64,000 nucleotides of DNA, taken from the NCBI GenBank assembly GCA_905178155.1, contig CAJINV010000012.1:1182492-1246491 (forward strand), in the 5' to 3' direction. The position numbers and the translations under genes were made by a program. Origin of the DNA: Amoebophrya sp. A120. Lineage: Eukaryota > Protista > Dinoflagellata. The notes below the pieces were generated by a model. The model had not been told where the DNA came from. It did not search any database and saw only the letters and a program-made list of their open reading frames with translations. Positions 31,600 through 56,000 of the stretch are shown one piece after another. Numbering within the stretch: position 1 is the stretch's first letter; every line of letters starts with the position of its first letter.

Positions 31600-34500
31600 T
31601 CAGTCGTATCTGTGTCCTATCGTTGCGTTCGGAGGTTGATACGAACCCCACCTTCTGTATCAAATGTAAAAATGTCTGGGTCTGGAAGAGTGCGCGATTT
31701 GTCATGCAGCTTTTCCATGACCCATGAGGTCTGAAATGCAGGACCTAGCATGACAGAGTCTGTGCGATCTCTCTCATGCCTATCCTGCATGAGAAACTCC
31801 CTCCCGACTTGGTCAAAACTGGGCGACTTTTGGTAATCATGCAACACAGATTTTTCGCATGCTTCAGATTTAGCATGACAAGTTGCATTCTTCCAGACCC
31901 AGACATTTTTACATTTGATATTCTGCTGTCGTACCTGTTTTTGCTTTCCGAACGCCGACTACTCGTTGCGGAAAAATTGGTCATTTCGATCTCGTCATCA
32001 GAGTCGGCCTATCCAGTGCAAATATGTCTGGGTCTGGAAACTTGTGATGCTACGTGGCGATGATTGAGCATACTCCTGAGAGCAGCCAAGCATGACAGAT
32101 TTTCGGGACGCTTCCTCATGCGTGATGCGCATGAGAAACTGCGCCATGACAAAGAATTCGGGCTTTTGTCGGTCACGCAAGACAGATTTTACAGGAGTGC
32201 AAGACAAGCAATACAGATTCCAATTTTACCAGACCCAGACATATTTGCATTTGATACGGCCAGACCGAGCTTCACAAAAAGCATCTTTGCGACGTTGCCC
32301 TTGTAGCACACGAGGTAGGCAAACACGCCCAGGAAAAGCCAGGGGAGGTACTGCGTGAAGAAAACGGAGGCGGGTATGGAAGAGTGACACAGTGCTTTGT
32401 CTTTACTCGAGCTCCACGCACGGTCTCAATTTGAATTTCATGCATCTTCATCAAAGTACAATAGTTACAGGTTGCCGGTGCCACCTCGCGCTGAGTAAAA
32501 GCACGACGCTGCGCATGGCAAGAGGCGACACAGTTCTACTGCTCCATCCGCGGCCACTTAAACTTAGTTGCACGTAGATCAAGAACATGAAAACCCCTGT
32601 AAAACTTTGCGTCAACGCGACACGTTCACGTAGAACGAACTCTACAAGAGTGCAAGTTGTTCTAAAAAGTTGTGCCAAATGGATACAGGTTGTCGACGCG
32701 GTTACCGTCCCGTCGGTGTGCTCATGCTCCTCCGGCGCGTGCAAGGGAGCTCCTGCTGCTGTTTCCCCATGTGCTTCGCCGTCCTGACTCGTCCTGGCAG
32801 CATCCTTTTCGACTGGATGCTTTATTTTGTTTTTCCGTTCTCGGCGAGACCGGGCGGAGGCTGAGGAGCTCCCTGATTCTTGGCGCGACGTAGTAGATTC
32901 GTCGACGTTCATCTTCATATCAGACGAGGCGCCATGAGAGGTCTTTTTCATTGCGTCAGTATTTTTGCTTCCACCAGTGCTGTCAGGAAGATTACTAGTA
33001 CTGTCGACCGCACTATTCATCTCGCCTCGCCCTCTCCCGCTACTTGTTTCGACTTCTTTGGGCAATTCATAGATCACCACGTCGCTCACACTGGCGCCGT
33101 GCGTCTTGCGCTGCTTTAAGTGCAAGCAGGTAACAGTGTAGGAAGTATCTGTGATGTTGATGAAAGTGCATTATTTCATACGACCACCGATATTGAAAGC
33201 TACTACTTACAACTTCTAGATCTAGGTACAAGGTTATCAGAACACCATACCATGGGTATTCTAGTCCGAGAATATATGAAACCACGCATGAGAACTATAA
33301 TTTTTTCGTCTAGAATATTAGTAAAATTTACCTTTCACGAGCGGCGTTTGCCGATAGGTGGTGCGAAACTGCAGATTGGTAAACTCCATGCCGGCTTCTG
33401 ACTCTTCGCACCCGGGGTTCTCTTCACTGCCGACGAACGACTATCGCAAGGAAAAATCCCCATTCCCCATATCGAAAACGAAACTCGTCATGCTGCATTT
33501 GAGTACACCGATCAGACTTGTCTTGCTGGAGAGGACTGCAGGCCTATAATGAGACTGAGTAGAGAAGTCTTGCGCTAGGCTCTGAGCATGGCACGCGTCT
33601 AGTCTGTAGGGCCAACAGCATCAGAAAACGCCTGCCGAATGCGGCGGAGCCTGTGGAGTTGCGTTCTTGCAAGACAGAGACGATTTGTGGTCACAAATCA
33701 GCATTGCAACTTTTCTGAGACACACCTTTTCGATATGGGGAGGGTTAATTTTTCCTCGCAATAAGGACGTTCTCAACCTTCGGCGCGAAAGACAACATCG
33801 GACTTTGTTATTTCTTGTTGTGTATGGATTGCAGATGTGTCTGGGTCTGGAAAGAATGGGATTTGTCATGCTAACTTGCGAGCAGAGAAAAATCTGTATT
33901 GCATTGAGCAGCAAAAGGTGCTCAGATTTTTGCTTCCCGGAGACCCATTTCTCATGCAGAATACGCATGAGAAACCCTTGGCGGAACCTGTAATGCTAGA
34001 GTATGCATCACCGACATCGCGTTCCTTCGCGGGTCATGTAAAATTTGCATGACAAACGCCCTCGATCTTCCAGACCCAGACGCAGACATGTTTGCAATGC
34101 ATATTATGGAAGTAGATGATGACGACCTGGTAGTTGCGGCGCTGGTGTTTGCTTGTAGATTACGAACTCGCGCAATAACCACACCCGTGTTGCTGGCAAC
34201 TCTTAGGGAAACTGTTTTTATGGAAAAAAGCAACTTTCAAATGGATCCATATCAGTCTTAACGAGGGAAGTAGATGAAGAAAACGAGGGTATAACTTCGC
34301 CGCGTTCAAACCATAAAGGACAAGAAAGATCTTGCTTATGATTTTGATTTTATCGCTCAAAGCATTACTTAAATACGAATTTTTGCCTGCGGGGTCGTGA
34401 CGGCGCCGGCACTATCCGTGTCCGCGGCTGATGGCGTGCCTTGGGAGGACGAGGTGTGCGACGAAACAGATTCCGATCCAGTACCCAGCGAGGTGGAGAC

Positions 34501-35045: not shown

Positions 35046-38000
35046 TCACGCGTGATATCTTGACGTGCTTCCGCAGCGATACTGGTCTGTCGTCGTCCAC
35101 ACCCGATCCCGCTGTAGCGGAGGACGAAGCTGCTGCTGCTTATGCAATACCAAAATTATTTTGCCGGACACTAAGTACAAAACGCATCTAGACACTTCTG
35201 CAATTATCAGCAGCGCGTGTGTTTTCATGATGTTGCTGCATCAGGTTCCTGTGCCAAATCCATGTCACGCGGAGCCAGCATTTGCATTTTGTAGTGTCCG
35301 GTAAAATAACATTATCTGTGGATAGTGCCACGGCACTGTTGTCCTTGTCACCAACGGATGCTGAGGCACCAGCATGTTCTTGATCCGTACTACCAGGAAC
35401 GGCTCCGGTGTTGATACCCCTGGTCTTTTTCCTCTTGATAGTACCGCTGCCACTGCTGAACGCCGTTTCTGCAGCTTCGTGCCCCCCAGGAACTTTATTC
35501 TCCGCTTCCGGACAGTGGTTGCAGGTTTTGCGGCAGTGCTTCCGGACTTTTTCCAGGTCCGCAGAGCTGTACCCCGAGAGCTCCTTGTCCCGGCTCTCCA
35601 GTTGGCTCTTCTTGCCGCAGTCGTAGCTGCTCCACTGCGCGCAGTTGTAACCTTTTTTGTCGCGAAAAAACGCATCGTCTTCATCACAGCGGTAGTGCTT
35701 GCGCAGGTGCTTCCGCACTAAAAACTCTTTCTCACAAAACCCGCACTTTTGCTTGCAGTGCGAGTGGACTTCCGTTATTTCTGTCTGGTTATACTGGGGG
35801 GACGGATTTCTACACCAGGCTTCCGTCCACTCCTTGCACTTAAAACCTGATTGTTTCGATTGTAGGCCATGTTCTTGCGCATGACAAAAATACTTTCTGT
35901 TTCTTATATCTTCCACGCGAACGGTGGAACATGAACAACTATGCGTACTTATGCCAACACATAGATACTACATCTTCGCAGGTTTTAAGTGCAAGGAGAG
36001 TACTTCTTCTTCTTTTCAACTACTATCCGTCTTCCTCAGCGAATGCTGCGCACCGTCACCCCAGATGAAAAATGTGTTTTCGTTTTTTATTTTTCCCCGC
36101 ACGCATTTATTTCGTACTAGTAATAGTAAATGTACAACCACTACCAGCACATAAAGAAAATCTTCCTTGGGCGCTGCGCACCCGGAACGTCTACCTCCAT
36201 TAAAAGTTTATGCTGTCACAAAATACCAAACGCGCATTTTCGTTTTTCACAATTTCGAGAAAAATAATACAAAAAAGATTTTATATGCTGTTTATTATTT
36301 TCGAAAATCCTAGCTCGTATCAGGGGGCTCTGGAGCAGGTGGAGGAACGGCTGGCGCAGGCGACCTGGTAAGAAGTGTTTTTAGTGGTGGAGCGAGTGCT
36401 CATGACAGTAAATTCCTTAACTAGCTAGTGGTGCACGCGGCGGCGTTTCCACCCGGTGGTGAATGGTTACGGTCCGGACCAAAACCGTAACCTTTCGGGC
36501 GGTCGTCCCTGCAATCGGCGCCCGGACTTACACGGAGACGGACGCAAATACCCGGCACCAGCAGCACGAAATGGGTCACGGTTGGAGAGCGGAATCTTGG
36601 CGACGGGTACCTCCGCGATGAACTTGATGGCGAAGTCGGCTCCGACGGAAGCATACCGGGTGAAAATATCATAGCCATGTGGGGCCTTGCTATGGGACAT
36701 GACTGTTACCACTATCCACCGCCACCGAGGGCGACACGCCTTGCATGACAAAGTGAACCGCATGACCAAAATTAGCTGCACTTGACGGCCATAGACTGGA
36801 AGAAATGAAAGTTTTAAGGCCGCCGGAGATACAAACGCGTTTGTCTCACTGAGATCCGGAACCAACCTAGCTTCCAACTCCTGGCGCGCCTGCGTGCAGG
36901 CGGTAGTAACAGTCACGCCCACCCCTCTTAGGTTCCCCACATGGCTAAAGTATTTTCATCGTGGATACTGGACTAGTACTCGCGAGAAGGAGTTCGGCGG
37001 CCACGAAACAGGTCGCCACCCAGCCTTCCATCGCCGAGCGGAACCTGGGGCAATCGAGTGAGATCGCCCGCACGGCTGCCAGGCGGCCAACACCTAGCGC
37101 CAGGACGACTACGCGAGCAAAGGCAAAGCATTATTTTTCTATGGTGTCCAGGCCGCGCACAAGTCGACATGTCTGGCAGTGGCTGCTACGTGAAGGGACG
37201 GAGCCCGTCTCTCGGGCGAGCGAGTTTCAGCGTACTTCTCCGTAAACGAGCACGATCTCCACTGCCTCTCAACGCCCACAAAGGGAAAGACGACGACACC
37301 CAACCACGACGCGAAAAAACGACAGGCCGGAAGTGCGACCGTGGGCAACCTACGACGCTTGGGCAAGAGTCACCATTCAAATTACGCACCGACCTACGAC
37401 GCAGGTGCATCATCCTTGAATTGTCCGCAAAGCTTGTGGACCAGATGATTAGAATCCAAAGCGATTGAATTTTGTTTCTCTTGCATTGCTAGTTGCACTG
37501 CAGGGTTGGTCCATCAATCAGTTTTTGTATGTACCAGACAGGTGGAAAAAAGAAATTGACATAGCACGCAAACTACAATACAGTCAGATCGAGGTAGAGA
37601 CGGAGCAAAACCTAATAAAGCAGATGTGTAGAAAAGCCGAAGTTGCAGTCATGTTGCCAAGCAGAGTAAGAAAATAAAAACAAAGTAGAAAAGTGCGTCT
37701 GGATAGAAGTGAAGATGACAATAATACGAAGATCAAGATAAATAAGACAACAGAAACTCTTTATATCGGTCGCGCGTGCAGGTGGGGAAAAAACAATCGT
37801 CTTACGTGACCGAAAGAGCAGCAACAATACCACACGGTCAACGTCTCAGAGTAAACAGAAACAGAAGATGAAGACTCAGGAAATGACTGACCACTATGCC
37901 GTCTATCAAAGCCGCTGGGTTTCTCATCTCGCTCTCTCCGTCACGACACAGAAAGACTTCTCTTAGTTTTACCGAAGCGCTGTTCTCGATTCGACTTCTA

Positions 38001-41000
38001 GAAAAGACCACGACCTTCTACTTCTTGGTGGAGCTGGAAGACGAGGACGAGGAAGATTTGGAAGAAGACGAAGAACCCTCCGGCGCGGACTGACTGAAGG
38101 CCAACGTCTTGGAAACCATCTCCTGCTCACGCTGCATCTGCTTCTCGCGGGCGTCCTTCGACTTCTTGGTGATGCCCTTGACCTTCAAGGACTGGTCTTC
38201 CGGCTCGACGGCGAGGAGGAACTCCATGTCGAGGAAGCTCACGGTCTTCGGCACCACTTCGTCCGCAAATTTGACCTTTTTGGACTTCTTCGGCTGGTCC
38301 AGCAACGGGTCATTGAAGGTAGTGATCGGGTTCGGGCCGCAGGACTGTGTTGTTCGAAATTTACATGTTACATTTTGCACAACTACAACAAAAAAAAGCG
38401 AGATCGTCCCGAATCCATGAGCAACGTGATTTCTTGTCATTATCTCAATCGGACATCATGAATATCTTTATTTGCCATGCGCTTACCATGGCAAACGGGA
38501 CGAGGCAGAACTTGTTTTTCCACTTGTCCGGCCCAATGTTCGTGGTCTTGAATCGCAGGGCCAACGCACAACCGGTGTCCCTGTTGCAGGTGAGGGGGAG
38601 CAAGGCCGCGATTCCGAGGCAGCAGTTCTCGTACATGATCGTCTTGGTCTCATACAGGTTTCCGGGCCCGCTGAAGTCCACCGCGTAATGCCCGCGGTCG
38701 ATCGAGCAGTTCGCCGTGGGGACCGTCACCTGTTGTCGCAGTAGATTTTTGCATTATTTATACGAATGGGAACCAGGCAACATTACCCAGCGAAAAGATG
38801 GTGGGCCACACACGCACCACAGCTACCTCTCATCGCCAGCTATTCTCATGCAAATGCAACAAATTCTCACTACTGCAAAACACAACATCAATATGCGTCC
38901 TTCGTGAAATAATCGAAAGAAATATGCTGTCGATTACCGGCTTGTCGTCATCATCCCACGAGAGGATCTTGATCAAAGAGTGCGGCTCGGAGGACTGCTT
39001 CTTCGCGATCTCCGCCAAACGGTTGCACTCGCTTTCGTACAACAGCTTCGCGGCCTTAAACCGGGCGGCCTCCTCCTGCATGAGGCGCTGCATGTCGTTG
39101 TGGGACTCGAAGTTCATGTTGCCCAGGTTGTCATCGTCGTCCTCATCCGAAGAGACGGCAACCGCCGCAGCCAAATTATCTGCGAGATATTTCATTGCGG
39201 GTTTCGACGTTCAGATATGACCATGCGGGAAAATAGATGTGGGTCTGCAGTCATTGACGATGCGTTTTTACTGGGCGACAGAAATAGTACTCGAGAAAAC
39301 GACAAGAGTAATACTCTTCTTCTTTTTCGCGGCCTTTTCGGATTTCTCCCGTTCCTTGGCTTCTTTGCGGAGGCCCTTTTTGATCTGGGTCACCTTCGAC
39401 TCGTGCTGCTTCTTCGCCTGGTTCTCGGCCTCGCGGTACTTGGAGCGGAGGCTTTTCAGCCGCTCGTCGATCATGTTGGTGACCGTCGAGGGGGTGCTGA
39501 CCTTGTTGACCTCGCCCATTTCGAGTTCACCACCGTAATAGGCCTTGACGCGCATTTTTTCTTTTAACTTCGTCTTCTCAATCGTCGCGGGGGCAGGCAA
39601 GGTGACAACCTAGCGAGAGTTGTAAATTAAAACTTCATATCTGTGTGGGGTGTTAAGTCTCAAAACATGCACGCCAGTTTCATAATCGTATGTATCTGCC
39701 TGGGACAGGCTATAACAAAAACATCCCGAAACTAGAGGAGTAGTCTTTACCTCATAGGTTCCAGAGACGCACCCCGGGGTGTTCGCGACATACTTGTTGA
39801 TCAAGACCGACAGCTCCGAGCAAAACTTCTTGCTCCGCGCTTTCAACTCTTGTTCCTCCTTCGTACTCGGGTCCCAGTTATCGTACAAGAGCCCAAAATC
39901 ATCCGGGTGGACTTTCAGGTAGTGGTCCTGGGGGGTATGTTTTGTTGGTAGATTTGTCATGCGTGGCGGGTTGGACAAAAAAGAAAAAGCCCAATGCCCA
40001 GCATCAACATCTATATGGACTGAAAAGTAAAAAACCCACTTGATGTGCCTAACGACGGAGGAGTAGACGCATCCTACGAACAACTTTTGAAAAAATGCAA
40101 CTATACCGCCCCATGAATCATCTCGTGCTCCAACAAGAGCGAGTTCTGGTCGTTCTGCGCGGCACGCCTGTTCCGCATCAACTCACAGCAATCCCGCGCA
40201 AACTCTTCGGAATGGTCGGCGTGGAAAAAGAGACCGTCGTCACCAGCCTCCGGGTAGGTGTGCTTCGCGAACTCGAACACCTGCTGCAACTCCTCTTCAG
40301 AGAAGCCGTTCAAGCGCTTGCGGTACTGCTTGTGGAACTTCGCCATGATCATGGCCGACAAAACGCGGTCGAAATGGCCGCGGGACAGCTGCGTGGGATT
40401 CAGGCTCCGCACAGTAGTGTGGCACAAGGTGAAAATCTCCAGGTCGTCCTTTTTGACACAGGACTTCAACACCCTCAGGGCGCCACTGTTCGGCTCGAAA
40501 AACTTGTTCTCGGCAGTGTAGCACCCGGTCTTGTATTGCTGCTCAGTCAGCCCGTCCATGCGGCCGATCGCGTAGGCCACCTCGTCGGCAAAGGTCGGCA
40601 ACGGTTGACCCTGGGCGACGAGAGCCTCCTTCTTCTTCAGAAACTGCTTGCGCAGCTGATTGAAATAGAAATTGAAACTTTTTCGAATTCCGACTTCTAT
40701 GTTCTCCAAATGCCAATATATAGAGTGAGATCAACTTCAACAGGCTGAAACTTGGTCCAAAAATGCACCGGATCGAAATCGAAGACGGAAACTCACCTGA
40801 GCCGTGGGCGCTCAGAAGCTCACGCAAAATAAAAGGTAAGCATCCACCACTGCCGGTCCGACGGCATTCCGAATAAGCGCGCCCGGACCTGCCTACCCCT
40901 GCGCCAATGATAACCATGCTGCCCCCCCGCGCTGCCGGAAGGCCATTGCCCGCCCACCGCCGCGCGCATACTTGGTAGCGCTGGCGGGGCTGGCGGGGTG

Positions 41001-44000
41001 GGCCTACGTCCACCACAAACGAAGCGGATACGGGCAACCGCGGGGCCGGCGGATTTCCATCCACTCTCCCCGCCCTCAGGTTGCGATCTGTAGCGCTGAA
41101 ACTACCAAACACCATGCTAGTCCCCAACTAGCACGGTTTGTCGCTTTACCCTATTGATCTTGCAGCAACACCGGGCGGGGGTGGGCCCCAGGGCCACGCA
41201 AAGGGCCCCGCCCTTTGGAGGCAATGCGGGGCCCACCGGCAAAATGGCGCCGGAGACCCGCCAAACGCCCAGGACCGTGCCACGCTCGCCACCCAAAAAC
41301 GAAACGAGTTCCCCCATGTGTAATTTTTCGCAACAGGAAAAAGGACCACAATAGGACACATCAGACCACTTGACCTGCCTCGCTTTTTTAAAACATTTAG
41401 CCTGCCACCGGCCCTAATTTTTAAAATTTAATTTTTTTGAGCAAAAAGAATGGCGCCACCAAAGCAGAAACGAAAAAAACCACCCTGCGCACGGGCGAAA
41501 CAGGCGGCGAAAAGCAAAACAGCGCAGAAAATCCCCGCGCAGGCCGAACACGCCGAAAAATCCGGCGCCCTGACAATGAAAGACTGTGGGCGGTTTGGCG
41601 AACACCTGCGGGACTCGACAGGGCGAAAAAAGGCCGCCGGGCTCCGCGCCCAGTTTGCGTGGCTCCTTCAATGCCTGACCGGCCGACGGGGCGCAGATGT
41701 GCGCCAACTTTGCTGGGAAGATCTCAACCCCGAATGGACGCAAATCCAGGTAGGGGACTCGAAAACAGCACGGGGCGGCGGGCGCGGGCTGCTTGCGTGC
41801 TGCCCCATCGCCCCGGGCGCCGAGACGCTTATGACGCTCGCCAACTTCCGGAAGCACTGCGAGCGCGAGGCCCCCGACGGAAAACTTTCCGGCCCCATCT
41901 TTTCTTTCTCATACCATGCGTACGAAAAATTAATCCGCAAGGCCCGCCAGGGCTTCACGCCTTGCGACCCGGAGAGCTGCCGGCCGAGTGCAATCACGAG
42001 CCACACACCACGCCGGAGCTTCTGCACCCGCCTGATTCTCCAGGGCGTCGCCCCAACGGTGGTGCAGCAAATGTCAGGCCACAAATCCGCCACAAGCTTC
42101 CTGCGCTACGTGGCAACGGGCTTTGCATTTCGCCACCAAGCGGCCAAGCGCCTCGACCTGTAGATCGCGGTGGCGGCCGCGGACCAAAAAGCGGCGCGGC
42201 GCGGCCGAAGGCGGCGGGGCTGACCAGCGGGGGCCCGAGAAAACAAAAACCGCCGGCCGGCTTGCGCGGGTTGGCGTGGCAACATGGGGCCCACCAAAAC
42301 AGGCCGGCTAGCAGGCGGGGCGCCGTCGGGGCGGGTGCCCGCGCCCGGCGACCAAGACATGCCAGCTGCCATCTTGAATGGGCGCCCGGGCCCCGAAGAT
42401 TGCATGGCCACGCTCCATATGTGGGGCGTCGCACACGAGACGAAACCGAGCCAACGGTAGACCTAATGATAACACGCTTCGCGATCAGAATGATCCCTGT
42501 TAGTCGTTTTCACTACTGAACTGGACCGAATACTTGAAAGTGAAATTATGAAAAAAAATCTACGTACAGTGAGGCACTTTCCGGACAATTTCTGCCAGGG
42601 CGTGACCAAGAGATTCAGGTTTCCGTTGTTCTTGTAAAGCACGTACAACTGGAGAAGCTCGGGCCGAAATCTGGTCGGGTCCAAAACGAGGTGGCTCAGG
42701 ATACGGATCTGTAGGGTTTCATGGCGTTGTGGTGAGATGCTTCTCGTTGGAACGTGATGCGCGTGCTAGTTGGTTTCTCACCTTCACATGGGGCACAGAG
42801 CTTCCCCATCTCTGTCTTTTGCATGACCTACGAAAGAAAAATGCAAACTCGGTGGTGATTTGGTTTTGAAGATGAGAAAGACAAAAAGCACACAGTACAC
42901 AGATTCCCAGAGCAGCGACGGTCTCCCAGGCGAGGTTCTTCATGGCGATGGTGCTGTGGTGCCCAGCGGCCGGGCCTCGCGCGCGCAAATACGTGTCCAA
43001 GAATATGTACACCCAAACTGTAGGTGAGTTTCGGTTTTCAGATGTTGGGGGGGTGAAGAGAAATACATGAGAAGAATACGGGAGGTCTGCACGCACGAAA
43101 CTACTGTAGTGGATCTAAAAACAAAGGCGCGAACTATACTAATGCCGTCGCCGGCCATCCAGCCACCCGTTTCCACCAGGTTTTTCAAGACCCCGGGCTG
43201 GTCCGGGTCTCGCACCGGGTTGACATCGGCACCACAGTGCTTGACGTCGAGCGGCACGTAATTGTCGAGATCATCTTGTTGCACCTTCCGGGGTGCAACC
43301 ACCGTTGTGCCTTCCTCGACGAAGTCGATCACGGCCTGATTGGTCACAGCAACCGGGTCGACGGCGTGCCGCTGCAAAATGCGGTCTTGCGCCTCCAGCG
43401 ACGGAAAATCCGTGGCCGGGGTGGTTTGCAACACGATAGGGTTACGGGGGTCCGTCATTCTGTGATAAGCTTATCCGGGTACGGAAGCTTCGCGATTTGC
43501 TCGAAAGAGAAGTTGCTACTGCGTCAAAAGTGATTGGTTATTGGATAGGGACAGGGGAAAAAAACACTGCCACGAACAAGATCCAGAACACCACACACGC
43601 AAAAAGGGAAGACGAAACGGATGATCTTTTCTGGTTTCGAGCAGTAGCGTGGAGCTTTGGATTTTTCGATCAGAAGAATATGAGGAAAAATAAATGAAAA
43701 ATGCACAAGATTTTCACGAACCACGCCAAGAAAATGGAATTTTCATTTTTCCAACGAGGACTGCGAATTATCCAGATACTTTTCAAAAAAAAACGCTTAT
43801 ATTTTTCGATTCGAAAAATACGAACCGGCACGACGAAGACGGACATCTCTTTTTTTGCCGTATTCAGAGCCCGCGTGGCCCTCTCACGCTGGCGCCACAG
43901 CGGGTTCATTCGGAACGTTCGCATTTATGAACCGCTGCATTTCTTCTTGCGCGCGCCGCTCTTCGGCCTCCGCTGGGTCGCTGATTTCTTCGTCAAGAAA

Positions 44001-47000
44001 CTTTCCGACCTTCTTCAGCCAGGCCTTTCGGGCCTTGGAGATGTCTTTCATCTCCAAGGACGCAGCAACCTTTGTCACGCACTTCACCACGGCCTGGCTT
44101 CTCGCGGCTGCTGGCTGGTTGCTCGCTGCGACCCGGTTTTCATGGGCGGCGCGGGCAGCTTCACTGCGGTACTTCAGCGGAAGGTGTGCGCGCCAGGACC
44201 GATTGAACGGGCAGAAATTGCAGTAGAAATTGTACTCCCGGAGCCCGGTCTGCGCTAGTTCCGGAACCAGTTTCCGGACGTTGAAAGACCTGTCATATGG
44301 ACAAGAGTGCGTGATGATTAGGCACAACGTGCGCGCTGGGAAATTATCTCTTTTTGCAAGTTGCTTCCCAGCAGGCGGGGCTGGGGCAAAACAAACAACA
44401 CGGGGGCACTTCCAATAATTCGACTCGCCGAAAGCGCGTTTTGTAATGCTGCTTTCGACGATTTCGTAGGATTTTCGGGCAATCTTCCCGGATGCTCGCA
44501 CTTTAGGGCGAGAAACCGCAGCTGGGCTTGCAGTGGGCCCGAAGCCCGAACTTGTCATGCTGCCGAGCCCCCTCGGATAGGCGATTCAAAAGAATCGCCT
44601 GCACAAGGGGCCATCGCAGCATGCCGCGCTTGTTTCTCTAAACGACAAGCGACCTACAGACTTAGACAGATTTCGAGCATAGCACGCGGACCAGGCGAGG
44701 CGGATAGGGCAAACGCAGCAACTTTACTTCGTGTTGTGCGTTGTTAAGCCCAAAAAGAACTACTGACATAAAGCAAAAGCACGGCTTGTCATGCTGAGCG
44801 GCATTCTGCACCGGATTGCAATTGCCACACAGGAAAAAACTCGCCTTTTATGTATAGAGAACGAGTCAGATCATGAGCGTAGCATGCGGACCAGGCGAGA
44901 AGGATAGAACGACAGTAGCACTTTTAGGCTGTGGCGTCATGCATTGTTATTTTTATCCCCTGTTCTCATCGACGAATGACTTTCGCTGAAAAGTCAAAAT
45001 ATGGAAGTACCTCCAGGACGAGTCCGCCTTGCGCTCCCGCTCCGCCTGCTCCCGTGTCTCGGGGTCCGCCCCGGGATCGAACTCTGCCTCCTTTCTGGGT
45101 TCTCGCGCAGCAATAACATCGACCTGGTGGCGGGAAACTGCGCTCGACCCGAAGACTTATCCACCCCAAGAATGGGGCGACACACCCAACAGGCTGTCAC
45201 GCCCAAGGAGATCCTCCCAACACCTCAAGCGCGTGTTTGTCATGCGTACGGGCGTTCTTGCGAATTGCCGCTGCGGCGCGAGCTTGGTTTGTCATGCAAA
45301 AGTCGCCGCCTCCTTGATCATGATCTGTCATGCAAAGTCCGAACTTGGTTTGTCATGCAAAATTGGACCACCGCGCCAGCTAAGAGATAACCCTGCTGAT
45401 CTTAGAACTCCACCGTGTGGCGTGACAGCAATTGCGGTGATTTGCCCCACTCTCAATACATAGACCACCTAATACCCGCACCCGCAACTCCCGGTCGCAG
45501 GCATCCAGAGCGGGGCCGACACTGCTGCTTCCTTGCAGACCACCTGCAGTGGCGACGGCATGAACCTCCAGTAAGACGGAGGACGGCGTGACGCGTTCGA
45601 AGGAAATGTTCGTGACCTTCCGGTTGCTGCTGCACAGATAATCCTCCGCCCACCTCCCCAGACTTTTCCACTCCCCCGGCACCAGTTTGTAACATTCGTC
45701 TGATGCTGCCTTGACTCCTTGGTCTGGTTGCAGCAGGTCCGCGCGAGCGGGAGCAGAAGACGATGATGAGGATGATGATGAAGACCCGCCGTGACTATCA
45801 CCGGAGGGGCCGTTCCGCGCGGAGGAGCTGTTGTTCGAAGAATAAGCCGATGCGGGCATGCGGGTGCAGCGGTTGATCAATGCATTGCCCGGCTTGATGA
45901 AGAAGACCAGCCAGGCCTGCTGGTTTTTTTTGTCTGCTTCCGACCGCAGCAACATTCCCAGCCCCTGCGAGGCCGGGTTACCGTCATGGCCATGCCCAAG
46001 ATACTCGCTGATCTTTATGGCGCTCCCGAAAGGCTTAAAGTGGTGCGGAAGCAATTCAGCAGATGGAGGTGGGATCTCCAGGTCGTCGGCTAAGGTGACT
46101 GCCCTTTCCCACCGCTCGTCCACGAACCTCTCTGCCGCTTTTATATTCTCCTCCACAACCGTCGGGTCGAAGGCGTAGTCGAAAACTGCGTCCCGGAGTC
46201 CCTCATCTTCAGCATCCAGCCCGGCGTCGTTTTCACTGGTGTTTTCGGCAGCCACACGCATTTATCCAAGGAAAAAACACACCCAGCCCTATACAGCCAC
46301 CCAGAGTCAGTTTTTGTGGATATCCGCAATTTGTCATGCGTGGCGGAGATCGGCCTCTAAGGACGTTTTCCAGAATATGCAGGTCCTTATAGGCCGGCCT
46401 CTTTCACGCATGACAAATTGCGCAGTCGATCTCAATTCATTGGTGGGGCTCTTGCATTACATATCGGTCGCCACACTACAGCTCCTGCTCGTGACACAGG
46501 TACCAGAACAGGCCGGGCACAAACACAATTTGTATTGCATATGCCAGCAGAGACCCCTTCATCTATGGATATCGCTGTCGGGGCTCAACTTACTGTCAGG
46601 GCTCTCACAAAGGTCATGGCCACCACCATGGTCTTTGCTGCCTTTGTCCCTCTGCCAATCTGTCATGCAAAATAAGTCGTTGAGTGAACGCAGGAAGCCC
46701 AGGCGTGGCACCTTGCAAATCTGCGATGCAATCTGTCATGCTGATTTCCCAGGCGCTTTCGTGGCTGGGTGTGGCGGGGGGGCGGATCGCATACTGCCCG
46801 CTTTTTGGTTTTGTTGTGAGACAACCGCCCATCTGTTCGATGCTTCTGCTCGGCGCGGAGGCATTTGTACTCGTCGTACGGCAACCCACGGTCGAGCGCA
46901 ATCTTGGTCCTGTGAAGATGGTGTTTTGCGGGCGAGATGGTGTGTGGATGATCAATGGGACTAGTGCTTGCTCTACCGGCCGCCGAAAGGGAGCGGCACA

Positions 47001-50000
47001 CCAAAAAAGTTCTTGTCAGGAGAGGAGGGATGGGTGGAAACTGCTACTACTTACTTATTCGCCGGCGGGACCCGCAGGTCGAAACCCCACCGCCGGTGTA
47101 CTTTGATGAATGCATCCAGATGAAGTAAAAACTAACGATGCCACCGTGCGGCCGGGGGGACATGAAGTGAATACTTTTCCGCGACGTGTTCGGCAGTTGA
47201 CCGCCCACACCCTTCGCGCCGCTGGTGCATCAAGACAGAGTGCTGCGACTCGGCGCCCTGCGACGCCGGGTGGATTTGGCGAAGAAGGGAAACCAAAAAC
47301 GGCACTGCAAACCACCACCAAACCGGTCCCGGCTCCTTTCCGGCGGCGAGCAGCCGGAGCTCCTCGCGGTACGACTCCCTGAAGCTCAGCGACAAGTCGT
47401 CCAACTCCTGCTCCGCCCGGTCTATCCCGAGCAGCAGCTGTGCCATCTGGCGTGGGCGGAGGTCGGACCTCTGTACGCCTCCGGACGAGTCGACCTCGCC
47501 GAGCAAAAAAACCAACAGGTACGGAAAGCTCCGCAGCTGCAAAGTTCGGCCGCTGAAAATGGTCTTGCAGGCCAGAAGGAACAGCATGGTCGCGCGGCGA
47601 ATGGGGGCGTTTCGGATCAAGTCCTGATTTTGCTCCATCAACAACATCCACTCGGCGCCCGCAAGTGCTCGTGGCGCCATGCGAACGAGGTCCGTGGCCT
47701 TGACCGCACTAGACAGTGCCGCCCCGAACTTGCAAACCCGCGCACTCTGCCACTGAACAAAGGCCACAACAGGTGCAAGGGCCCGGGCCGCTATCCAGAA
47801 AAACTCCGAGGCAGTAGCCTTGATGCCACGGCCGCTGTGGGCGCCATCCTGTTCCGCCTTCCGCTCCGGGCTGGTTTTGTATGTGTTGAACATGGAGGAC
47901 ACGACGTCGCGATTGGCCTGCAGGTACTGCAAAAAAGGGTCCAAGCTCATCCACCTTGTTTTCACCCACTGCTGTGGAACCGGCTGCGGAAGCCGCGCAT
48001 GCTCCACGAACCATTTTCGTGTCCGGAGGCACATCTGGATGGAGGATAGGGCCGCGACGAATTCGCTGTACAATGCGGCGCCAAGCGTGATCAAAGACCC
48101 CGCCAGCAGGTCGTACTGATGGAGCTGGCACACGAGAATAACCATCAGGAACGGCAGGAGGCACTCCGCGTTGGCGCGGAACGGATGCTTGATCGAACTG
48201 GACGGCATCACCGCGGAGCTACTGGAGCTTGTAAAAGACGAGGACGCAGCCGGCGCACTCGCGTTGCCAGCGAGAAAAGCTCCCCCGCCCAGCTGGGCCG
48301 GGCTGTTCCAAAGTGTTGCGCCGCACGCCGCCGTCACCGCGCGGCAGAGTTGATAAAGACGGCTGCCGGCAAGAAGTACATCGCTGGCACTGTCGGTGAC
48401 CCAGATGATGACGCTCACATGGTAGCCGAGGCCGGCACAAGAACCAGGGAGGTGCAGATGCTTGAGCGCCCGGTAGACATCCTGGACCGCGTTCTCACTT
48501 CCACCGGACACCACGAAGGGCTTTGGAACAACCCGCCTGGAATATGACCGCGTGTTTTCCGCTCCCGAAGGTCCCCCGTTTGTTGTGGTGTACAGCAGAA
48601 CACACTCCACGTTCAGCAGCTTCTTGTAAGTGAAACAGGTCGCGTCCGGAGAAATGCGGGTGAAGATGCAGGCAACTGATTTTGTTTATGGCCAGGAGTT
48701 CATTTGTTACTTCTAATCGCCAAACCGACTAGCTGGGGCTGCAACGATAAAAAAGTCCTCCCACCCCTAGCTCGCCGCCAACAAGACCAGGCGCAACAAG
48801 CTCACTACTGTGTGTCATCATCACCATTGATTTATTTCGAGAGGGCAGACGCTCACGATGATACCGCAACGAATATTGACGGCTGGGAACTCGAAGACGA
48901 GATCCGGTGGCGCTACGGGGTTGGCCCGAGGAAAAACCGGCCGAGTTGCTGGTGGGAAAACCGACGACGAAGATGCCGATGACGATGAGGAAGGTGGCAG
49001 AGAAGCAACATTTCCGCCACGGTCCAGCGACGCTGCGAAGCCCCCCACGAGCGAGAGGAGTGATATCCCAACCAAAATCCCCACAAACATCGCACAGCAG
49101 CAGCTGCGCATAGTTACCCCTGCAGCTGCTGCTGCTCCACAAACAAGCCTCCTCAGGGTCTTCGCCCCGCCTGACAGTAAAAGCCTTCATGGCGCCCTGT
49201 CAGGAGGCGCTACGCATGACAAAAACAGAGTGCGTGGCCCGATCATGCCTGCTACCTCGAGCAGCTGCGGTGCCATGTTTGTGGGGATTTTTGGACAAGA
49301 TAGAATCCGTGATGAACTGCCGGTAGAAGGCGGAGGCCTCAAGCTCGTCCCGCAAAAGCAAAAGTCCCGCGACCTCTCGCTGTGCGCGAAGAATGAACAT
49401 CTTGGCCCGCGATTCGTTTTTCTGAGCATCCGCGCGCAGCAGTTTCGCCGCCTCCTCGTACTGGCTACTCGACAGGCTCTCATCCAAAACCGTCTGGCCG
49501 CGATGTCCGGTGATGGCGACAAACCTGTTTTTACCATGGGGAAACTGGGGCGCAGGACCGGTAGCTCGGTCATCCTGCCGAGCAGTTTGACAAAGGTGGT
49601 GGCAGCACTGTTTTCAGGATCACGAGCACAAACGCGAATGTCTTATCATCATCATCTTCATGTACCCGCCCTCACCCATCGCAGCTGCTGCTTTCACCTC
49701 AGCCTCGAAATCATCCGCGCCGGCCCCGTCGCCGCGGGCACTATTTGACACGGGGCGGACGTTCCTCTTTTTCCGCGAGTTCTGGCCGGTGAGAAACGTT
49801 TCCAGCAACCTTGCCCGCGTCATCGAACTGCCTGCTTGCGTTGCGACAGCCCACTGAAGGTATACCGCCCCGTCAGCTTTGAGCGTGTCCATCATCTCCT
49901 GGACCTCCTGAACGAGGGCGTCGCGGTCGTAGGCCCAATGCTTCTTCCGCTGCCTTGGCGGCGGGGGAGCCTCGTTGCCTGGTAGGAGGGGGGAGTCCTG

Positions 50001-53000
50001 ATCTTGCTGCCCATTCTCGAACCACGCGTCGCCGCGCGGGCTTACTTCAAGGAGCTCGGCTTCTGCTGGAGCAGCTGGTTGCTCCGGAGGAGCCGGAGGT
50101 TGTGCGACCAGTTCGCTGACGGTGTCGTACCGGTGGAGGATGAATTTTTTTACCGACTGCTGGATGCGGGTGAAATGTAGCTTCGTGGACCCCCATTCCT
50201 CGTTCAGCACCTTTCGGAACTGTGACACAGACACAGTTGCTTTGTTCCGCCGCTTTTTCAGCGCATCGCCGTGTTGCTCAGCGAAGTTGTTCAAGAAAAA
50301 AACGGCTTCTGCTGGTGTCGTTAGTGTTGCGCGTTGCAGCTCGTCGTCCAGGCTGCTTTGATCGAGCGCAGACATGGCCAGAAGCCTCTCCCTCAATGGG
50401 GCTACGCTCCGGGCACCAAACTACGGCAAGCCGGCATCTCGGGAGGTTGAAGTTATTGGAGACGACTCCACGGACATACTTGAACTTGTTGTGCGAAGAT
50501 GCAGCTGCAATTGGCGACAGTGAAAGCATCTGCGCCAAGGGCCTGAGCGGGAGACGGTCAAGACAGTGGCTAACCGAAATAAAAAACCACGGCCGCCAAA
50601 AACCGGCACTGTTAGGAGATCTGTGCAAAGACCCCTCGCAAGATCGCATCGTGATCGATTGGAACCTTGTGAAGCCCGGAAAAGAACATCGACTCCGAAC
50701 TGATCAGAGATTGCACAAGCAGCTCGCTGACATGAGCCACCGCACGCCACCTACTATTCTTTCAACACTGAGCGGCAGAGGGGATTCGGGCTGCCGATCA
50801 ACATTAACTCCATGCTCGCACGCAGTTGCTCACATTCGCTCCGCAATCCCAATCCAGACCCCGTGTGCGCGTCACGGACGTGCGTATGCGGTCGGCCGTT
50901 CGGGTTCGCTCACCCGTTTGGAAGTTCGCCTATCCCATGCGAAACCCGCGTCATCCCCTGCACGACCGCCCGAAAGGTTACGGTTTTGGTCCGGACCGTA
51001 ACCATTCACCACCGGGTGGAAACGCCGCCGCGTGCACCACTAGCTAGTTAGCATTCCATTCAGTTAACTACATGATGTCCATAGCAAAAACCTTACCATT
51101 CAGGTGCTCGGTAGGAGTGTTCTGGCGGCCGGGCGAAGAGGGGCAGGGCGGCGACTCGAGAATGCGGCTTGCGAATGCAATTTTGAAAAATGTTTTTTTC
51201 ATTTTTGAACGAAAAAATCGAAAAACGAAAATGCGCGTTTGGTATTTTGTGACAGCATATAAAAGTTGGCAACCAATTATACGAATACCCTGCGAATCCT
51301 TGAACACGGGGTCGTCGGCGCAAACCGTCGTCTCGTGCTGTTTCAGCATCGCAGCTTCGGCGACGTCCTCGTCTTTGATGGGCACGGGCGCTGCTTTCCC
51401 ACCGCCACTCGAGGAAGCCGCCTCCGAGGTGGCCGGTGGCGGGGCGGGGCTGCTGTGTTCTTCCACTAACTTCCCCACAAACGCCTTCTCGGCGCCCAAC
51501 GCGTGTTCCACTTGCGCCAATGCGGCCTTCTCCGTAGCCTCTACCTTCTGGACGACCGCCGCGATGTTGCTGGAAAGATCGCTTTTCTTCGGGTCGACAG
51601 GACTGTTCGGCGCCGAGGCCGGCTCGCTTTCGGAAGCGGCAGCGGTCGCCCCAGGAGTAGTTGCGGGCTCCAGCGCTGCAGTAGCATCAATCACTGGTGG
51701 CGCCGCAGAAGTTCTTACAACAGCGGCACTACTAGCGCTTGTTGTTTCTTCGGCTGTTTGTGCAGCCGCGGCCGCCGGCGCAGCGGCTGCTTGTTCCACC
51801 TCGGCAGATTTCGCTAGTCCAACAACCGGCACAGGAGCTGGTGCTGCTTCTTGCGCTAGTACAACGACCGGCGCGGAAGTCGTGGCTACAGCTTCGGCGG
51901 AGGAAGATGTTGGTCCAGCTGCTACAGTGGCTGCTCCCGCTGCTTCCACAGCGGGTGCTTCCGCAGCGGGTGCTTCCGCGGCCCGAGTAGCGCTGGAAGT
52001 GACTGCCGGCGCTCCGGCTTGTTCGCCTGGTTGGAGTTCCTGAGAAACTGCAGAAGATGAACTACCTTCTGTTATAACGGGAAGAACATGAGGACTTCGA
52101 CCCGCCCCGGCTGCGGCCTCTTGCTCCGCCGTCGTGACAGCCGGTGCTGGTGGCGCGGCCGTCACGACGGCTGCTACTGCTTCTGCTGCACCTGGACTCG
52201 TCGCGTCCGCTGCCGGCGCAGGAGCTGTTGTAGTAGCAGTAGCAGTTTCAGGTGCAGCAGCAGCCGCGGACGTCGTCACAACTTCGGTTTTATTTTCCTC
52301 GGTAGGTGGTGATGTTGCAGCACCAGGTGCTTCCTTTTGGTCCTCGGTCGTTTTCGCGACGGGTTGCTGCTCCTCCGACACCAACAGGCCAGTGTCTTCC
52401 GATGTGGTTGGCTTCGTAGTACTTGCCGGCGTTTCCGTCTCCAGTGTCGAATCTTCACCAACTGCCTTCCGCGACACTAGTTATGCCTTGCAAATATGTC
52501 TGGGTCTGGAAACTTGTCATGCAACAAAGGGAATACTAGTGAGCACACTGTAATGCGCTGCCAAGCATGACAAGATTTTCCGTGGTTCTGAGTTGCGTAC
52601 TTCGCATGAGAAACTGCGTTTTTGAAACACAGTTTTGAGGAGCTGTGCGCGACCACGCAATACAGAGTTTAGAGTCATGCCAGACTAGCATGACAAATCT
52701 CGCCCATCTCCCAGACCCAGACATATTTGCAGTTGATACTAGCGGTAGCTCCGCGAAGGAAGACACGGCGCCGGCGGTGGTGTCTGGTGCCCTTGCACGA
52801 TCTGTGGCGGCGTTCGGTGCCCCGGGTTTTGCGTTTTGTACGTGTTGCTGCGTTATGCTGTGCAAAAGTATCGTACTCGTAGTAATTGCAATCATGCATT
52901 ACTTTTTCTTAAGGTAAATCAGCAATACAAATTTCGTTTCATCCCATCCTGAGGAAATTTGTAATGCATTTATACGAGTACGATGCTTTTGCATTGCATA

Positions 53001-56000
53001 TGCGTCGCTGGGAAAGCTGGAGATGTGGCTCCTTGCGGCGACCATTGTTCCGGCGTTGTGACGCCGACCGCTGTAGGAGGGGTACTTCTAGTACTTCCGG
53101 GCTGCAAAAGCACCTTGCCAGACCTCTCGTTCTTCGCAACGTCACCCTCTTGTTTCGTATTCGTATCTAGTTCTGACAGTAGTTGTGGTGCACCGTCGCC
53201 AGGTTGTGCAAGAACATGAGTCCTACCTGTTTCATCCTGGTGTCCAGCCGCTGGAGACGGCGCGGGGTTTTGTGAAGATAGCCCTTCTTGTGCAGCACCA
53301 CTGGCGGCGGCGGGGTCCACTAAAGCTCCTGCACTCAAAGGCCCGCTTCCAGACATCGTTTTCTGCTGCAAGTCTGCAGCTGTTCCCGAATGGTCTCCCA
53401 CGCTCGACACATCTGCATCTGTACTCTTCGTAGCACTCACCCGTTTCGCGGATATCAGCGGCCCGAGCGCTGTATCAAATGCAAATATGTTGTCTGGGTC
53501 TGGAATGGTAGTTGAACCTGTTGTATTGCGTGTTTCGCATATCTAAAAAATCTGTATTGCACAAGCAGCAAATAAAGTGCCACACTTTCGCTATGCAAAA
53601 GTGCAGTCTGTAATGCCCTCTGCGCATGGGATTTGTCATGCTACACTGCACTTAAAGGCGCAGTCAATCATGACCATTCAGCATTACAAGTTTCCAGACC
53701 CAGACATAAGTATTTGCATTTGATACGCTGCCGCGACGTGTGTCTGCACCGCGGTTCTCCCTGCCACCCCGATTGGCTGCGCGATCTCTTTATCCTGTGC
53801 AAAAGTATCGTACTCGTACTAATCGCTTTTATGCATGACAAATTTTTTTCCTGAGTGAAATCCGCATTACAAATTTCATTTGTAATGCTAAGTCAATTTG
53901 CGTTGCAATTTATACTAGTACGATGCTTTTGCAGTTCATACTCTTGCATCAAAGGCAAATGTGTCAACATCTGGGGCGGGAAAAGAAGTGGAATTTCTAC
54001 CTGCTTTTTTGCCGCGTGCCGTATTGAATTTCTGTAGTAGAATCTGTTACAGTACTACATGACCAAGAACAGCGAATACGCACTACGATGTCCAATTCGG
54101 CTATTAAGTCCACTGGCCGTCTCATGCCTGGCTGCATTTGTCTAGAAATTGCCTCATCTGACTCACCAGGACCAGCCACAGCGACAGCGCAGCACCACAA
54201 GTATTCCCACGCAGAGGACCTCCCAGACATCTTCACATTTTCGATGCATATCGTGACCGGTGGACTGCTATGCACTGCAAATTAGTATGCCTCGGTCTGG
54301 AAGAGTCGGGGGCTGTCATGCACATTTTGCATCACCCGTGAGGTCTGTGATGCTGGTGCTAGCATGAGAGACTTTTCGAGGGCTTCTTGATGCTAGTTAC
54401 GCATGAGAAATGCCCTCGCCGCGTGCCAAGAACTGACTCCTCTTGCTGCTCATGCAACACAGATATTTTTAGAATCCAAAAACAGCATGACAAGTTGGAT
54501 CCTTCCAGACCCAGACGTACTTGCATTTGGTAACTGCAACGTTGCTTCGTGGGCGTGCTCGTAGTGGTGCTTGTCCCGCTTTTCGTGGTGGTTTTTCCGC
54601 GGGAGGGACGGATCGCCCCCGTGGGCCGTGTGCTTCAGCGGAAAGCTGACCGAAACGCCCACCGGTCGATCAGGTAGGTGCCCGTATCAACTGTAAAAAT
54701 GTCTGGGTCTGGAAGAATTCATGTTTGTCATGCTTGTCTGGCATGACTCTTAAATCTGTCATGCCCGTTACCCAAGAGCTGCGCTTTTGTGTGATGCAGA
54801 AGCGCAGTTTGTCATGCAGAGTAGGCAACACCTAGGAGCTCAGAAAGTTGTCATGCTGAGCCAGCATTTGTAGCCTCATCATGAGACGCTGCCCAGCATC
54901 ACAAGTTCCCAGACCCAGACATTTTTACATTTCCTAGCCCGTCCGCGGAAACGAAAAATACCGACTGGAAAAAATGGCTTTGGAGCCAAAGGAGCACAGA
55001 CACGAATAAAAGAACCGGGGGCGAACTGCCCGCAGCTAGAGGTGGCCTCATTTTTCTCTCTCTCTTTGGACAGACACAGATCAGACGACGACGCTGCGTC
55101 ATTTACAGCTCGGCGTCGTGGTGTTGACCTTGACCAGGGCAGTTTGCATTTTCTTGAAGCAGTTCCTTGTCGCAAGAAACGAACCAAGTAGTAAGAAAGA
55201 GTAGCTTAAAAAGGGCGGCATGATAGATAAACAAGAACGTGACAACTACATCACTCCTCCTCTCGACGGCGAAGTACTTGGACAAAAAGCGTTGCTTCGA
55301 ACACAAGTCCAGTAAACTTGAAACGCCAGGCTGCACTGCGCAGGTACGAGGACCTTCGGCACAGTGCTATCTTCGCCGCACTGCATTGGAATTTCACCCT
55401 CGCTCGGGGGGACCACGAAAGAAACGCTTTCTTGTGTTGAAGTATCTCTTGCAAGAGATGAGGTCGTGATGGGTTCTTCGGGTTTGTTGATAAGATAAGG
55501 TGTCGGCCTTTCTTTCAACCCGGTCTTCTGTGGGTTGGGTGGGGAGTTGGGTTTGGGGCTACCTATGCTTCGGTCTACTTCCAGGGGTGATCATGTTTGG
55601 GGCTACCTACTTATGTTCCTGTACCGCTTTTGTCAAAATAAATCGAAACTGCTGGGTTGGTAGTGTTGGGTTGGTGCTGGTGCTAGGTTAGTTTTGCTAG
55701 GTTGGTGATGCTAGGTTGGTGGTGCTAGGTTGGTGATGCTAGGTTGATTGGTGGTGCTAGGTTGGTGGTGCTAGGTTGGTGATGATAGGTTCATGAAACT
55801 GAGTTAATGATGCTGGGTTGGTGGTGCTCGTGGTTTTATTAAAGGTTTAAAACATCAAAAGGCCTCAATATCGCAATGCAAAGAATTGGCGCCAGGACCT
55901 TTTCGTCAGCCGTGGCTATTCGAAAGAAAATCATCTTGGCGCGTATTTACGTTGCAAAGCAAAGAGCGAGCAAAATGAAAGAAAGGTGAAGAAACTCGAA

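Follow-up and report, generated by a model that had tools for sequence, protein, structure and literature searches.

Euplotes Tec1/Tec2 and Paramecium ITm transposons encode a tyrosine recombinase (YR) (PMC9797194; PMC5405496; PMC3212892). In the literature examined, the eukaryotic DDE transposons with a YR (ciliate Tec and Paramecium elements and the fungal MarCry-1) are Tc1/mariner-type, and the job of their YR is merely guessed (PMC3212892). MarCry-1_FO, a Mariner-Crypton fusion, likewise pairs a YR with a DDE transposase, and it is the latter that moves it (PMC3212892). Here we describe a 15,051-bp element of the dinoflagellate Amoebophrya sp. A120 in which a YR accompanies a putative hAT-like transposase. 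It occupies positions 36209-51259 of a 64,000-nt stretch (assembly GCA_905178155.1, contig CAJINV010000012.1, positions 1,182,492-1,246,491), hereafter the window, to which all coordinates refer. Ciliate Tec-type transposons are its closest parallel: like Tec1/Tec2 and ITm, it is a DNA transposon of an alveolate with terminal inverted repeats (TIRs) and about three genes, among them a YR and a presumptive DDE transposase. However, those elements are Tc1/mariner, whereas this one has an 8-bp target-site duplication (TSD) and hAT-like motifs in place of a Tc1/mariner transposase and a TA target. Unlike them, it is also 15 kb in size, has intron-rich genes, holds its YR antisense within an intron and carries separate inner repeats with a dyad.

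A repeat scan placed the boundaries of the element, which is bounded by perfect 40-bp TIRs and a perfect 8-bp TSD (Table 1; chance of an 8/8 match at a fixed position, ~2e-5). Between each TIR and the inner 89-bp inverted repeat lies an end-specific segment; the two segments are identical at 58/169 positions in register, and the 169-bp offset is exact at both ends. The GC content is 55% in the element vs. 48% in its flanks. In X1, a DNA run that may be the source of the window assembly, a contig covers 36477-50991 and breaks where an 89-bp repeat must break a 31-mer graph, as expected if this repeat is present twice in the reads. The element seems to have inserted into an intron of a host gene on the minus strand, as the predicted flanking exons join in frame with 383 nt left. 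Since the window assembly and X1 may share the same data, the repeats could in principle be an assembly artefact, but the exact break of the short-read graph, a TSD and a composition shift that are not products of misassembly, and the in-frame host exons make this hardly credible. Two nested elements, i.e., a 14.6-kb element ending in the 89-bp repeats and inserted into a ~420-bp hAT miniature inverted-repeat transposable element (MITE), are most improbable as well. The inner repeats do start with TA, and the 8 bp flanking them match at 5/8 positions (AAATTCCT / GCATTCCA); against this, an insertion equally distant (209 bp) from the two outer ends would be a rare accident, a decayed TSD is inconsistent with adjoining repeats identical at 89/89 positions, and the transposase encoded inside agrees with the 8-bp TSD at the outer ends. 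No Rfam match was found over 36000-51500. Among the open reading frames (ORFs) scanned, no Pfam or NCBIfam match to a capsid, packaging ATPase or polymerase, as a Polinton-like or endogenous virus would encode, was found, although very divergent capsids could escape, and within the element none had a Pfam match to the reverse transcriptase or RNase H that DIRS, Ngaro and VIPER retrotransposons have beside their YR. In the interrupted host gene (35188-35846 and 51289-52480), Cys-rich repeats with a weak match to ShK (E 0.1) come after a long stretch rich in Ala, Thr and Glu; the product may be a secreted or surface protein. Small inserts bounded by inverted repeats lie within the element at 49074-49291, 46325-46422, 45169-45453 and 36650-36969; the first is introner-like and splits the likely transposase gene.

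Members of the hAT superfamily (e.g., Hermes, Ac and Kat1) have an 8-bp TSD, short TIRs, a DDE triad, CxxH and a conserved W (PMC4763223). The element shares with them the 8-bp TSD, TAAAAGTT, on both sides and TIRs that are 100% complementary, and in its minus-strand, 517-aa frame, SPDAT, VTDSAS, CQLH, TRWMS and PASQGAE (aa ~12, 96, 186, 243 and 473) are candidates for the D, D, CxxH, W and E motifs, in the order expected of hAT enzymes. The consensus applied to this frame is the one we take to be that of the superfamily. The top matches of the frame in the ESM Atlas were hAT transposases at 0.86-0.88, and nine of the ten best family-bearing matches belonged to the hAT family or clan; with scores below 0.9 and 103-138 shared features, these are a lead only. 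The element differs from hAT transposons in being much larger and in having a YR and a second large gene. No Pfam match to the hAT dimerisation domain (PF05699) or to a BED finger was found on the exons scanned, where divergence or unscanned exons may hide them, and we call the element hAT-like because the hAT Pfam domains are unmatched. A single-sequence model of the transposase reached a pLDDT of 39, and its Foldseek matches are meaningless. A hAT identity is nevertheless very probable in our judgement, mainly through the independent agreement of the motifs with the 8-bp TSD. RNA evidence near the transposase comes from X3, one of four runs (X3, X5, X6 and X7) that are RNA runs by guess, from one sample at depth 3-8: X3 contigs cover 43858-44291, and a loose end matches 45014 onward. 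The second large gene, gene A, is intron-rich: all five of the distinct splice joints supported by contigs are on the minus strand, and its first four exons join without a stop. Its single exons had no Pfam or NCBIfam match.

The YR lies antisense within an intron of gene A. An X5 contig joins 40655 to 42568, with 31 letters on the short side, and so bridges the minus-strand, 1,912-nt intron (CT..AC on the plus strand). The YR is a 237-aa ORF that matches Pfam Phage_integrase at 40.6 bits (cut-off 27.1) and, over residues 22-234, PHROG 1. All of its catalytic residues are present (R80, K105, H185, R188, H211 and Y220). In an AlphaFold model (pLDDT 84, from a 10-sequence alignment), the N-terminal ~40 residues are of low confidence and are followed by the catalytic domain alone; structure comparison showed resemblance to integrase, XerA and Cre. 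It is, by its R-K-H-R-H/W-Y residues and integrase catalytic fold, a tyrosine recombinase. The original prediction, made from the letters of the window alone, had placed an intact R-K-HxxR-H-Y recombinase gene on the plus strand, antisense within an intron, with an N-terminus resembling a nuclear localisation signal and no core-binding domain. These features were all recovered, the N-terminus as a basic tail with 11 K/R among its first 40 residues. A short 5' exon of the YR is possible, although the in-frame pairing of its donor and acceptor has a chance of 1 in 3; the AG of the acceptor-like signal is 8 nt before the YR ATG. No contig of X3, X5, X6 or X7 covers the YR, and the raw RNA runs X8-X10 (2026) gave no reads over 38000-44500; neither result means that the gene is silent. 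Immediately before the YR start, 41401-41434 shows a partly low-complexity, 34-nt match with three differences to a 127-nt X1 contig of depth 171, ~4x the local depth.

A search of 1.84 billion representative sequences gave eight proteins at E up to 1e-10. The close relatives with a named host all belong to Amoebophrya sp. AT5.2 (g2071, g1514, g19144, g8986, g9703, g19149 and g17899), and the AT5.2 supplement of PMC6482013 holds two more family members, g1758 and g10417. In a quick tree of 69 rows, which contained no Crypton, DIRS, Tec or giant-virus YRs, the 15 family rows formed one group (SH-aLRT 99) with no supported sister among the 54 other YRs. At E up to 0.1, 12 of 14 family members matched PF00589; apart from one stray AP3D1 match, nothing else was found in Pfam, and neither DUF3504 nor any other Crypton-linked family was among the matches. 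No longer or fused homolog appeared among 7,988 candidates scored, which is weak evidence. Alignment searches of viral and metagenome contigs revealed no relatives of the YR, and the viral contigs held none of the transposase. The YR motif pattern retrieved one Bacteroidetes-type phage integrase from the viral contigs and 17 loci from the metagenomes, none of them a family member, and tblastn against phages and plasmids returned only integrases of 22-30% identity. Phage and bacterial integrases of ~190-210 aa that consist of the catalytic domain alone likewise have no core-binding domain, and those of ~200 aa are the nearest ESM clusters; a marine group of 192 aa shares an HTPRRS-type motif with the YR. 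However, these short integrases are ~20% identical to it and were not a supported sister in the tree. The marine, 192-aa proteins occur at locus L002 (674-3669) and also at L004, L005, L015, L017 and L018; the L002 gene adjoins a primase/helicase-like ORF, possibly as part of a phage satellite.

Several AT5.2 copies of the YR are broken. In g8986, C replaces the catalytic Y, which its cluster mate retains; g17899 is without HxxR, and g19149 has 89 aa. Such damage fits transposon copies, which tend to break. We compared by eye the neighbours of six of the nine named AT5.2 loci (g1514, g1758, g2071, g8986, g9703 and g10417), using the first ~400 residues per protein and the genes to ~g11,000 given in the PMC6482013 supplement. 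All six loci had a large gene resembling the 3' part of gene A on one side and, within three genes on the other, a gene of 1,365-1,869 aa. An adjoining gene with an SGNHT motif, matching the 5' exons of gene A, was present at four of them and degenerate at a fifth. One neighbour, g10414, has DAT, FDSASSN and CALH motifs like those of the window transposase. The AT5.2 order is that of the window except that gene A is divided in two where the YR lies, the result to be expected when gene-finding software meets one gene nested in another. These counts might shift with the complete supplement. Six neighbour genes have no annotation in the AT5.2 annotation table, and the examined part of that table has no hAT or BED Pfam rows. 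Since matching neighbours accompany the YR at all six loci, the YR has in all probability long belonged to the element family. It may have come in as a cassette, by an ancient insertion into an ancestor of the big element. Two further unannotated AT5.2 genes, g7460 and g3281, carry a TRWLS motif (g7460 also CxxH), which suggests further hidden hAT-like transposases.

The original prediction had read the YR as a stand-alone, ~1.8-kb Crypton-like element, or else a domesticated module, in an ordinary host intron, with ends at 40754 and 42527. In part the locus agrees: the insert is GC-rich (61.7% vs. 34% and 25% in the intron remnants), and its removal would leave an intron of 138 nt, as forecast (~130-140 bp) and near the 141-208 nt of four further contig-supported, minus-strand introns nearby. 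The letters named as ends are likewise present (Table 1), and their inverted-inside, direct-outside arrangement would, on a circle, bring the ends together as a plausible YR site. However, 79-100% of 300 shuffles also gave a 6-bp inverted match, so that the arms are at chance level, and GC change-points at 40741-40847 and 42442-42506 put the proposed right end ~20 bp off. The joint pattern of inverted repeat and flanking near-direct repeat, which was defined post hoc once seen, occurred in 0.9-2.3% of 3,000 shuffles. A likeness of the end hexamers to the dyad spacer (7 bp) is too short to use. The prediction had proposed looking for further copies and short-intron alleles; in X1, where one contig contains the stretch, neither a second copy of it at 80% identity or more nor an empty-site joint was found.

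Cryptons resemble the present case in being mobile elements with a eukaryotic YR gene, but they have no TIRs and 4-6-bp direct repeats, some of them lacking clear terminal repeats (PMC3212892), whereas the 15-kb element has TIRs. In contrast to Crypton YRs, the YR has no DUF3504 or GCR1_C match and scores with phage-integrase models, and on present evidence it is not the mobilising enzyme. A Crypton would be a YR-only unit at unrelated sites; here, by eye, the neighbours match at every AT5.2 locus compared, and the supposed host gene itself lies within the TIR/TSD element. The same layout, with the YR between two parts, recurs in AT5.2 with YRs that are ~35-42% identical, which would be unexpected of an independent Crypton or a domesticated host gene. 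The YR thus belongs to a mobile element, as had been proposed, but that unit is the 15-kb element, and a separate 1.8-kb Crypton or a domesticated module is very unlikely. The prediction had further, as speculation, linked the YR to introner removal, and nothing was found tying it to that process.

What the YR might act on was suggested by a dyad scan, which found a candidate site in each inner repeat (Table 1). Dyads of this kind are rare: of 661 tiles of 89 nt from the window, 6 contain one, as do 4 of 5,000 shuffles of the repeat. Known YR sites have inverted arms of 11-13 bp and, usually, spacers of 6-8 bp (PMC3212892). The two dyads of the element face opposite ways. In YR recombination, oppositely oriented sites lead to inversion, not excision, and recombination between the dyads would thus invert the core rather than excise it. 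We propose cut-and-paste movement of the entire 15 kb by the hAT-like transposase, which would use the TIRs and generate the 8-bp TSD, while the YR would serve as an accessory invertase that recombines the dyads and flips the 14.5-kb core between two ends. We incline to regard the dyads as YR targets and inversion as the outcome, and this division of labour between transposase and YR is, on balance, the account we favour. Yeast 2-micron Flp/FRT and bacterial Tn3-family resolvase/invertase systems share, in what we take to be their mechanism, a recombinase encoded between two inverted sites with 13-bp arms and an inversion geometry; they differ in that the present sites are in an integrated transposon and have a 10-bp spacer, and the YR is unrelated to theirs in sequence beyond the fold.

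The same 15-kb element could instead use its YR in replication or resolution, i.e., to resolve dimers or cointegrates or to flip an excised circle for amplification; in this view, gene A would be a ParB-like helper of segregation. Flp flips the yeast 2-micron plasmid during replication and so amplifies it, and a recombinase with two inverted sites is the layout of that plasmid. The NP[VIL]R and G[NH]H motifs at the N-terminus of gene A form a set that we take to be ParB/Srx-like, a label that no hidden Markov model match supports. Resolution has also been proposed for the Tec YRs (PMC3212892). However, there was no sign of a circle or of raised depth (for X1, depth is a single flat value), and hAT transposases, which cut and paste via flanking hairpins (PMC4763223), need no resolvase. 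We consider a role in replication or resolution, the main rival to our account, rather unlikely. Alternatively, the 89-bp repeats could be subterminal repeats that bind the transposase, with the YR a passenger or acting elsewhere. The ends of hAT elements frequently have subterminal repeats (PMC4763223), the 10-bp spacer is atypical of YR sites, and the folding of the 89-bp repeat is only slightly better than that of its shuffles (z -1.7). That copies 35-42% identical retain an intact YR among the same neighbouring genes argues for a function in cis, and the dyad is rare by chance; we consider this alternative improbable.

Several observations weigh against inversion by the YR within a transposase-driven element. 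The dyad spacer must be counted as long, since it has 10 bp against the usual 6-8 (PMC3212892), and neither an inverted isomer nor a circle nor an empty site came to light. X1 contained no near-identical second copy of the core that would point to current activity. A YR without a core-binding domain could need a cofactor or be weak. For the transposase, besides the modest ESM scores, there was no sequence match in Pfam, NCBIfam or the PDB, and its candidate E lies one residue away from the spacing we presume for hAT enzymes. In AT5.2, the homologies were judged by eye with gene strands, introns and element ends not visible, hAT motifs were visible in just one of the six large neighbours, and the g1514 locus has no separate gene annotated for the 5' part of gene A.

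If the YR does invert the core, the orientation of its gene suggests a possible use. Amoebophrya genes lie in co-oriented blocks (83-98.5%; PMC7789003). The other genes of the element run with the host strand and the YR is antisense to them, so that only an element inserted against a host block would have its YR read. Expressed only in such an element, the YR would then flip the core at its lox-like sites, bringing the transposase and cargo genes in line with the block and silencing itself. Such a self-orienting, self-limiting switch is speculative, and we put it forward tentatively, as a possibility that is more doubtful than inversion itself.

The element would add a hAT-type case to the DDE transposons with a YR, together with a concrete candidate target site for the recombinase. 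No prior description of an element combining hAT and YR, or of this Amoebophrya family, was found in the literature searched, which excluded subscription papers and Repbase; the words "recombinase" and "integrase" are absent from the main text of PMC7789003 and also from PMC6482013 and PMC12005148. PMC12005148 reports no DNA transposons in the genome, and PMC7789003 uses the scarcity of transposases as an argument against transposase-driven introner spread. The element shows that Amoebophrya harbours large and highly divergent DNA transposons overlooked by standard profiles, and the argument from scarcity needs rechecking, though nothing connects the 15-kb element to introners. If our account is true, the YR would count as a new eukaryotic site-specific recombinase of minimal size (237 aa) whose target site is already at hand; a recombinase that has a defined site and no core-binding domain could serve as a compact genome-engineering tool.

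Table 1. Coordinates of features of the 15-kb element in the window.
Feature	Position	Strand	Basis
Left TSD, TAAAAGTT, 8 bp	36201..36208	+	identical to 51260-51267
Left TIR, 40 bp	36209..36248	+	100% complementary to 51220-51259
Left end-specific segment, 169 bp	36249..36417	.	length equals right one
Left inner inverted repeat, 89 bp	36418..36506	+	100% complementary to 50962-51050
Candidate YR site: dyad of 13-bp arms matched at 12/13, asymmetric 10-bp spacer between them	36461..36496	+	dyad scan; function inferred
Gene A, large, with multiple exons; YR within one of its introns	38018..43458	-	five contig-supported splice joints (runs RNA by guess)
GT-AG intron of gene A, 1,912 nt	40656..42567	-	bridged by X5 contig
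Left end in original prediction, GAAACTT/GGTCCA; unsupported as element end	40747..40759	+	shuffle tests
Possible short YR 5' exon; GTAAGC donor at 40836, in frame with acceptor at 41441	40763..40835	+	sequence alone
CTAAT (branch-point-like), T-rich tract and AG; possible cis- or trans-splice acceptor	41414..41441	+	sequence, inference
Catalytic-domain-only YR with basic N-terminal tail	41450..42163	+	Pfam, PHROG, AlphaFold model, residues
Right end in original prediction, TGGACC/GAATACTT; unsupported as element end	42522..42535	+	shuffle tests
Further exons, possibly C-terminal part of transposase gene	43884..46261	-	ORFs; X3 contigs
Putative hAT-like transposase catalytic exon, 517-aa open frame	47132..48685	-	motifs, ESM Atlas lead
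Likely first exon of transposase gene	49620..50375	-	ORF; by eye like N-termini of AT5.2 g1515, g9705, g8988
Right inner inverted repeat, 89 bp, dyad opposite in orientation	50962..51050	-	repeat scan
Matching right dyad, opposite orientation	50972..51007	-	dyad scan
Right end-specific segment, 169 bp	51051..51219	.	length equals left one
Right TIR, 40 bp	51220..51259	-	repeat scan
Right TSD, TAAAAGTT	51260..51267	+	exact copy of left TSD

Other repeats were observed elsewhere in the window. Positions 1-5050 are a tandem satellite of diverged, ~177-bp units in at least 24 copies. A MITE-like family of ~260 bp is present at 17659-17920, 26440-26697, 31658-31920, 32010-32256 and other positions; its members have ~30-bp TIRs starting with TATC, a pattern matched at 13 ends. 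Finally, a tandem array of a 14-bp repeat lies at 55647-55848.

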